Shown piece by piece: positions 47,313 through 47,654 of a stretch of DNA of 63,491 nucleotides (its first letter is position 1; every line of letters starts with the position of its first letter). The DNA is from Nanobdellota archaeon (lineage in GTDB: Archaea > Nanobdellota > Nanobdellia > Pacearchaeales > GW2011-AR1), in assembly GCA_018817405.1 (NCBI GenBank), contig JAHITZ010000032.1, positions 1-63,491 of the forward strand. Direction: 5' to 3'. The notes under the pieces were generated by a model. That model did no database searches. It had not been told where the DNA came from and was given only the letters and a program-made list of their open reading frames with translations. The position numbers and the translations under genes are program-made.

Positions 47313-47654
47313 TTATTCTTTTTTCTCTCTTCCCATGAAGGATTTTCCTGGAGTTAGTATTGGAGAGCCCCTATTTTCTCTAGCCTTGTTGTTGGTTTTA
47401 TCGATAATATGACCATATTCATTGGGTGTTAAATTTGCTACAGGAAAACGATGTGTGTGGGCCTGCCCAAATCCTTCACTAATTTGTCGGACAACTATCT
47501 TCCCATCTTCGGTTGTTTCCACGTATGAGACTCTCCCTATGTCTGGTTGAGCAATATGAAGGGCATCGCTTGGTTGTAAATCTGACAGAGGTACATAAAT
47601 TACATTAACTCTGTTTCTTTCGACTCTGTATAGGGGTCTGTTGTCTTTGCTCAT
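47313..47654 (-). CDS. Orphan ORF (113 aa) between groES and groEL
   Basis: ATGA overlap with the groES stop; TAA-A-ATG junction with the groEL start. Confidence 0.5.

Follow-up and report, generated by a model that had tools for sequence, protein, structure and literature searches.

A family of small proteins encoded between groES and groEL in Woesearchaeota/Pacearchaeota-type archaea

The groES-groEL pair is among the most invariant of gene pairs, and its products, GroEL and GroES, are seen as a chaperonin that is complete with two components. Small co-chaperonins that work with GroEL can be lineage-specific and highly divergent, as is the case for phage T4 gp31 and for duplicated Cpn10 proteins. 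A different kind of helper is found in the cyanobacterial rbcL-rbcX-rbcS arrangement. Here, the gene for RbcX, a small non-enzymatic protein of about 15 kDa, lies between two partner genes and its product serves Rubisco assembly; RbcX is an all-alpha dimer acting on RbcL. Genes found between conserved genes may also be selfish, as in phage morons and free-standing homing endonucleases, which exploit the expression of their neighbours.

In addition to bacteria, the groESL operon occurs in Methanosarcina and in Woesearchaeota/Pacearchaeota (PMC8204110). The passage of that paper that reports GroEL/ES in Woese- and Pacearchaeota is silent on an interposed gene. Our full-text literature search found no report of an ORF between groES and groEL, and no paper citing the source accessions. 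Across the libraries, structures and papers searched, we found no model, structure or publication for the protein family described below or for a three-cistron groES-X-groEL operon. The operon itself is orthodox; its novelty is an interposed family of previously undescribed small proteins.

Anatomy of the locus and its middle cistron

The window studied here, a stretch of 63,491 nucleotides, carries both chaperonin genes on the reverse strand, with groES upstream. The first cistron, groES (47651..47929), encodes a Cpn10 of 92 aa (Pfam PF00166, E 3.8e-21, and NCBIfam GroES models), and the final cistron, groEL (45701..47311), encodes a Cpn60 of 536 aa (TIGR02348, 788 bits). The two genes are not directly adjacent: the 339-nt gap between them is occupied by a 113-codon ORF on the same strand (ORF113; 47313..47654), which encodes a basic protein of 113 aa and pI 9.3, here called X. 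Its start overlaps the groES stop in an ATGA (47651..47654, reverse strand; ATG 47654-47652, TGA 47653-47651). At the other end, a single A separates its stop from the groEL start in a TAAaATG (47309..47315, reverse strand; TAA 47315-47313, ATG 47311-47309). The coordinates that a first-pass annotation had given for ORF113 and for both junctions were exact when the sequence was re-read.

The locus resembles the canonical groESL operon in gene order (Cpn10 first, then Cpn60), in having both genes on one strand behind one putative promoter, and in that both window proteins are orthodox. It differs in that the clade of the window has one to three conserved cistrons where the canonical operon has a spacer of -4 to about 85 nt, in that the putative promoter is of the archaeal TATA type, and in that the window GroEL lacks a C-terminal tail of GGM repeats. 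That tail (45701-45790, reverse strand) is instead acidic and ends in a hydrophobic tip (DFDDEKDK..N[PS]AIII). When C-terminal tails were compared, the acidic and hydrophobic form was common to all GroELs of the archaeal clade (L006-L062), with or without an insert in the slot between the two genes, and GGM-repeat tails were found in the bacterial-type outgroups.

The window is archaeal, with Rpb1/Rpb2-type RNA polymerase subunits, a DUF655 gene, archaeal-type ribosomal protein genes and a tRNA that probably carries an intron (see below). Near-identical copies of the region are present in an ENA assembly, in the NCBI MAG GCA_018812805.1 and in a Logan assembly, and relatives are labelled Nanoarchaeota, Pacearchaeota or Woesearchaeota archaeon. 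Synteny around the slots of two relatives, L006 and L070, is that of the window (DsbA-like gene, L21e, Rpb4, DUF655, S13 and others).

An expanded spacer could in principle hold a chance ORF or the decaying remnant of a gene. X belongs to no database family and public records name its homologues 'hypothetical protein' only, as would be expected of a non-gene. Against this, 111 codons remain open in only 0.06% of the shuffles that preserve composition (a probability of about 0.0006 of being open by chance), and the five other frames of the same stretch contain 4-7 stops apiece. The ORF is intact at the same position in 11 other diverged lineages, 12 with that of the window, and shares conserved motifs with them. 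It fills the slot exactly, with coupled junctions, its dN/dS is below 1 and its predicted fold is confident (see below). We therefore regard a non-gene as essentially excluded. It is firmly supported that ORF113 is a real protein-coding gene and the middle cistron of a three-gene groES-X-groEL operon in a DPANN archaeon of Woesearchaeota/Pacearchaeota type; the extra ORF that the first-pass annotation had noticed is a genuine extra cistron.

Codon choice in ORF113 is host-like (rank 15 of 53 window genes), with a GC content of 0.407 and a GC3 of 0.319 against a window-gene median of 0.322, as the first-pass annotation had proposed. Its companion claim, that the amino-acid composition is not host-like, did not hold: X has only a modest excess of R, P and H and a modest deficit of L and K, and when proteins are ranked by their distance from the window proteome it takes an ordinary 16th place of 53.

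The expression signals point to a single transcript. An archaeal TATA/BRE-like element, AAACTTATAAA (47951..47961, reverse strand; exact pattern match), has its 3' end 21 nt upstream of the groES ATG, and the pattern has no further match within the operon body (45701-47929). In the window and in about 20 related loci, the corresponding conserved 'aaa(c/t)TTATAAA' element ends about 21-26 nt before the groES start codon. Within the 3' end of groES, a GGAGG Shine-Dalgarno-like motif read from the sequence (47662..47666, reverse strand) ends 7 nt upstream of the ORF113 ATG. Relatives carry GGAGG, GGTGG or GAGG motifs in the 3' end of groES. In insert-free loci these stand before groEL; in the window and its type A relatives (defined below), the purine-rich motif precedes the insert and not groEL. 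The groES-type A junction is an ATGA in 6 of 11 loci and a stop followed after one or two bases by ATG in four; in L004, type A does not follow groES directly, as a further ORF comes first. The junction between the last insert and groEL is TAAaATG in most insert-bearing loci. From this anatomy we infer co-transcription of groES-X-groEL and coupling by termination-reinitiation. The one TATA-like element, the ATGA and the TAAaATG support the earlier suggestion that the gene is arranged for co-translation with the chaperonin pair.

The same signals could be read as those of a translational spacer or tuner, in which selection would keep an open frame that carries ribosomes from groES to the groEL start and sets the GroES:GroEL ratio, and the peptide itself matters little. 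The shift of the Shine-Dalgarno-like motif, which stands before groEL where no insert is present and before the insert here, would suit such a role, as would the start of groEL at TAAaATG, where the purine-rich stretch upstream is only weak. But arrays of three ORFs spanning 1 kb would be needless for it, and the mRNA structure is not unusual (z = 0.09). We return to this reading below, where selection on the protein is considered.

A protein family confined to the groES-groEL slot

Neither ORF113 nor 37 slot ORFs gave a meaningful match to Pfam, NCBIfam, PHROGs or PADLOC models, and a word-indexed protein search with the single ORF113 sequence returned only the query itself. An exhaustive HMMER search of 1.84 billion representatives found three full-length relatives of 109-114 aa: P0002 (45% identity, E 4e-15), P0003 (41%, E 9e-10) and P0006 (36%, E 7e-6). 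In this search, no full-length relative was found outside the slot. Profile searches added the homologues P0009-P0014, and a further ORF in the same slot (L010, 4270-4629) is also of this type. The homologues share 24-45% identity, and every one lies between groES and groEL on contigs of Woesearchaeota/Pacearchaeota type.

We define these proteins as type A: about 100-120 aa, encoded directly after groES and upstream of groEL, as is ORF113. Alignments A6 and A7 show the motifs Y-x-V-x-R, L-x-x-[LM]-x-x-G-D, P-P-x-G and R-[FI]-P-x-x-x-L-x-P-[DN]-x-x-G. Y9, D30 and G81 are invariant core residues, and R13, P37, R69 and P77 are nearly so. Members score 102-138 bits against the type A profile, with the window ORF at 138. 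In other respects the proteins vary: type A members have pI values between 6.3 and 10.1, types C and E (below) are acidic, and the tail motif is not conserved. When five profiles, for types A-E, were run over all six frames of the 63-kb window and of every locus, all matches lay inside the slot, with no further copy elsewhere in the window or in the locus flanks. Type A, with the related B/C groups, is an unannotated protein family. ORF113 is therefore not the orphan it was first taken for, having at least 12 distinct family members, all in the groES-groEL slot; the suggestion that it is lineage-specific was correct, type A being found only in the slot of Woesearchaeota/Pacearchaeota-type contigs.

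Several apparent matches were discarded. Those to the giant proteins P0004, P0005 and P0007 sum many repeats against one short segment of ORF113 and are not domain homology. The P0004 and P0005 matches might suggest a YD-repeat/Rhs-like identity, a type of protein in which many tandem YD-type hairpins form a shell. The P0004 match is a single hairpin (ORF113 residues 71-100) set against about 20 repeats, and P0005 matches another segment, residues 34-73. P0008, in which a type A N-terminus is fused to an RmlD-like domain, is the chimeric product of a 1-kb contig. An AbrB-like groEL insertion and a divergent groES in L007 are likewise chimeric contig-end artefacts: both ends of this 1-kb contig (1-60 and 900-1005) diverge abruptly from the otherwise identical L025.

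To place the family, species-representative genomes and JGI metagenomes were scanned with a GroES alignment of the clade, which yielded 62 further loci. In about 27 distinct lineages, 220-1065 nt lie between groES and groEL, and these wide gaps hold one to three closely spaced ORFs of 76-160 aa; only in L063 is the gap, of 223 nt, non-coding. The GroEL neighbour-joining tree places every insert-bearing locus except L015 in a single clade. In the sister archaeal clade, L015 apart, and in the bacterial-type outgroups, the groES-groEL spacer is -4 to 85 nt. Inside the insert-bearing clade, four lineages are insert-free (L019, L012, L014 and L013/L036), with junctions of -4 to 1 nt; together with nearly all of the sister clade, their spacers span -4 to 19 nt. 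The expectation that close relatives would retain the ORF was thus borne out in most of them, where it is intact, but not in these four, and the insert is therefore dispensable in some relatives. In L019, groES and groEL meet in an ATGA that resembles the groES-A junctions, consistent with a secondary deletion that removed the insert cleanly.

By BLAST clustering and profile searches, the slot ORFs fall into type A, which is confined to an inner subclade, types B, C, D and E, and about a dozen singletons. Recurrent architectures are ES-A-EL, ES-A-C-EL, ES-A-D-C-EL and ES-x-A-y-EL. Types B and C align convincingly (hhalign 75%; alignment A8) and are clearly homologous. Type A and B/C are collinear over 58 columns (hhalign probability 44%, P 2.4e-4), in an alignment that begins at a common N-terminal 'L-x-x-L-x-x-G-D-[IV]-V' motif. 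At least some of the slot groups are distantly related to each other, and the collinear alignment makes a single ancestral insert, later duplicated and diverged, plausible. In L008 and L020 (4001-4315 and 3001-3315, respectively), GroES is 104 aa long with a C-terminal extension of about 12 residues, and the 113-aa singleton slot ORF directly after groES has weak type C-like similarity.

L015, a Woesearchaeota contig of the sister clade, carries an independent 1.1-kb insertion (599-1714) of three ORFs (119, 104 and 150 aa), for none of which similarity to types A-E could be detected. This makes the slot look permissive by nature.

This poses the question whether X is a hitchhiker, a passenger of a permissive slot between strongly and stress-inducibly expressed genes that would borrow the promoter and coupling of the operon for a function unrelated to folding. 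Possible roles for such a passenger lie in symbiont-host or virus-host conflict, for example as an effector, immunity or anti-defence protein. A copy number of one to three with heterogeneous content, repeated loss of the insert within the clade and the unrelated three-ORF insertion of L015 at the same site are what one would expect of passengers, as are fast evolution (dN/dS 0.26-0.74) and the lack of similarity to any chaperone family. Like morons, the slot ORFs are variable, small and placed precisely between two conserved genes. Unlike morons, X has no nuclease or recombinase domain, no promoter or terminator of its own and no viral homologues, and its codon usage is native. Further points weigh against a passenger. 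No family member was found outside the slot, which would be unusual for an independently functioning protein. The slot has no integrase or nuclease and no flanking repeats, phage/viral collections and PADLOC gave no matches, and nucleotide identity profiles are without sign of recent cassette transfer. On balance a hitchhiker is improbable in itself, though nearly as likely as the chaperonin partner that we favour below.

More specific foreign origins were rejected. A phage tblastn search and an IMG/VR scan were negative for a viral origin. Pfam, PHROGs and PADLOC models detected no nuclease, integrase or transposase domain that would mark a mobile element, homing endonuclease or viral moron. 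A mobile cassette, in which the insert would be more conserved than its flanks, is not supported by the identity profiles, which are smooth, or by the native GC, GC3 and codon usage.

Selection and predicted fold

The three copies of the window locus (L001-L003) are from the same organism, at 99.9-100% nucleotide identity, and are uninformative on selection. Across other pairs, dN/dS is about 0.25-0.35 for the ORF, whereas its two neighbours range over 0.03-0.17. L011/L070 is the least diverged type A pair that is informative; here the ORF has a dN of 0.066 and a dS of 0.09, groES a dN of 0.05 and a dS of 0.29, and groEL a dN of 0.007 and a dS of 0.27. The dN/dS of the ORF in this pair is about 0.24 when set against flank dS and 0.74 within the gene. 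Deeper pairs give 0.32-0.34 for the ORF and 0.03-0.09 for the chaperonin genes, and a type E pair gives 0.26. Non-synonymous change in the insert is 5-10 times faster than in GroES or GroEL, and the ORF is still open across divergences at which synonymous sites (flank dS) are saturated. By these comparisons, the slot protein is constrained, yet faster-changing than its neighbours.

In both unsaturated pairs (L011/L070 and L038/L040), the dS of the insert is about one third of that of its flanks (0.09 against 0.24-0.36). Identity profiles do not explain this by contig chimerism, and a stable RNA fold is likewise rejected as its cause (fold z = 0.09 for the window copy).

For a translational spacer, the within-gene dN/dS of 0.74 in the closest pair is the pattern one would look for. 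It is countered by the deep-pair values of 0.32-0.34, by amino-acid identity of 24-45% that survives saturated dS, by the conserved core residues (Y9, D30, G81; R13, P37, R69, P77), and by a confident predicted fold that is consistent in two divergent members. Since all of these indicate constraint on the protein, we consider it very unlikely that the insert serves only to pass ribosomes on to groEL. What is firmly supported is that ORF113 is a genuine protein-coding gene of a clade-specific family, exclusive to the groES-groEL slot, with coupling of the operon type, fast-evolving under purifying selection and lost in some lineages.

The fold was predicted with AlphaFold2 from a 10-sequence family alignment. 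The ORF113 model (mean pLDDT 76, core 85-90; pTM 0.60) has eight beta-strands over residues 9-85, a short helix and a disordered tail (residues 94-113) that is rich in K and R. The model of P0009, a homologue of only 24% identity, has the same strand order (pLDDT 77, pTM 0.69). Foldseek searches of the PDB with both models and of BFVD returned no significant neighbour and no match below E 0.07, and a PDB sequence-profile search nothing below E 0.8. The weak Foldseek neighbours are Tudor/Agenet, SH3, KOW and PipX folds, with a PRC-barrel for both models. X is similar in size to these modules (PipX 2xg8, PRC-barrel 3htr, CdpB1/2 8qzo) and is predicted to be an all-beta barrel; these PDB matches are non-significant (best E 0.28-0.5, TM 0.43 or lower) and without a sequence-profile match to any of the families. 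No catalytic signature, signal peptide or membrane segment was found in ORF113. The most economical reading of the models is that X would be a small beta-barrel that binds a partner without enzymatic activity and carries a flexible tail at its C-terminus.

A fold of this kind invites comparison with the small co-chaperonins. X shares its small size with T4 gp31 and duplicated Cpn10, but is not GroES-like by profile or by fold. As a candidate GroES duplicate, ORF113 had no Pfam or NCBIfam GroES match at E up to 1, and type A aligned to a 54-sequence GroES profile with an hhalign probability of only 0.5-0.6% (all comparisons under 1.5%). In line with this, no Cpn10 chain is among the top 50 PDB Foldseek matches of either model.

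Small SH3/Sm/KOW-like barrels often bind nucleic acids, and autoregulators embedded in chaperone operons have analogies in hspR, at the end of the Streptomyces dnaK operon, and in hrcA. X could accordingly be a small DNA- or RNA-binding barrel that exerts feedback on a horizontally acquired, bacterial-type operon in an archaeal host. Besides the frequency of nucleic-acid binding among such barrels, the basic window protein (pI 9.3) with its K/R-rich tail and the conserved promoter element upstream of groES speak for this idea. The charge, however, is not conserved. With pI values of 6.3-10.1 within type A and acidic proteins in types C and E, the family gives no sign of a charge kept for binding nucleic acids. 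X has no HTH or RHH motif and no further known signature of DNA binding, and rapid divergence and one to three paralogues would be odd beside a conserved promoter element. Moreover, the insert-free L019 and L013/L036 retain the same promoter element. Feedback control by X is, in our estimate, a long shot.

X as a possible chaperonin partner

Taken together, we favour the reading that X is a chaperonin-associated adaptor or modulator that would bind GroES/GroEL or a subset of its clients, and give this a probability of about 0.4. We favour it because X is exclusive to the slot, would be produced in lock-step with GroES and GroEL, and has the look of a binding module. For the mode of action, the closest analogy is RbcX: X, too, is encoded by a small gene between the partner genes of a complex and would be co-expressed with them. 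The analogy is one of arrangement only, as X is predicted to be all-beta and has no sequence similarity to RbcX.

In the model we propose, one promoter upstream of groES would drive groES, X and groEL. The Shine-Dalgarno-like motif at the 3' end of groES, which stands before groEL in insert-free relatives, would now serve X, and groEL would be reached by termination-reinitiation at TAAaATG. Such reinitiation would hold the amounts of X and chaperonin at a constant ratio, and the level of GroEL may in turn depend on the translation of X. X would then bind either GroES/GroEL itself or some of its clients and serve, in the style of RbcX, as an adaptor or modulator particular to this lineage. Rapid divergence and change in copy number may reflect tuning to lineage-specific clients or to conflict.

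Several observations count against a chaperonin partner. The insert has been cleanly lost in L019 and is absent from L012, L014 and L013/L036, and so is not essential to the chaperonin. A non-synonymous rate 5-10 times that of GroES/GroEL is unexpected for a core cofactor. The slot is heterogeneous, with ORFs that have no detectable type A similarity and with the independent insertion of L015. The pI range of 6.3-10.1, the non-conserved tail motif and the lack of an informative structural neighbour also count against it.

A bolder version of the partner reading, which we consider doubtful, is that a DPANN clade has enlarged groESL to three-to-five genes with a family of small beta-barrels that would dock on GroEL/GroES as a third chaperonin component. 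Such docking proteins might select clients or guard the chaperonin against viral hijack, and their fast evolution could be driven by clients or by conflict.

A third cistron kept across many diverged lineages would possibly be a new chaperonin cofactor, in archaea that have acquired a bacterial chaperonin system and run it alongside thermosomes. Should X bind the chaperonin, the field would gain a substantial finding. Should it instead be a passenger, the slot would represent an unusually stable residence of passenger genes inside a core operon, and X an unusual long-term resident.

Further features of the window lie around and beyond the operon. Directly upstream of groES, at about 48022-48312 on the reverse strand, is a 96-aa fragment of a P-type ATPase nucleotide-binding domain, assigned through PF13246 on the identical gene of L002 (9341-9631). 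The fragment looks like a decayed relic, because L006 carries an intact 897-aa ATPase at this position. An intergenic repeat of about 140 bp, which had no match in Rfam, is present at 48928-49067 and 43580-43718 (90% identity), with a partial, inverted copy at 61321-61398. The two direct copies bracket a block of DsbA, M50-peptidase and groES-X-groEL genes. A 2006-aa ORF at 50576-56596 (reverse strand) has no Pfam match on record and is 2002 aa long in the near-identical MAG contig L002. At 22142-22239 (reverse strand), Rfam detects a 98-nt tRNA (58 bits) that was missed by ARAGORN and that probably carries an archaeal intron. Most archaea have the largest RNA polymerase subunit in two parts, A' and A''. 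In the window it appears to be fused, as a single 1143-aa ORF (14866-18297, reverse strand) contains Rpb1 domains 1-5.
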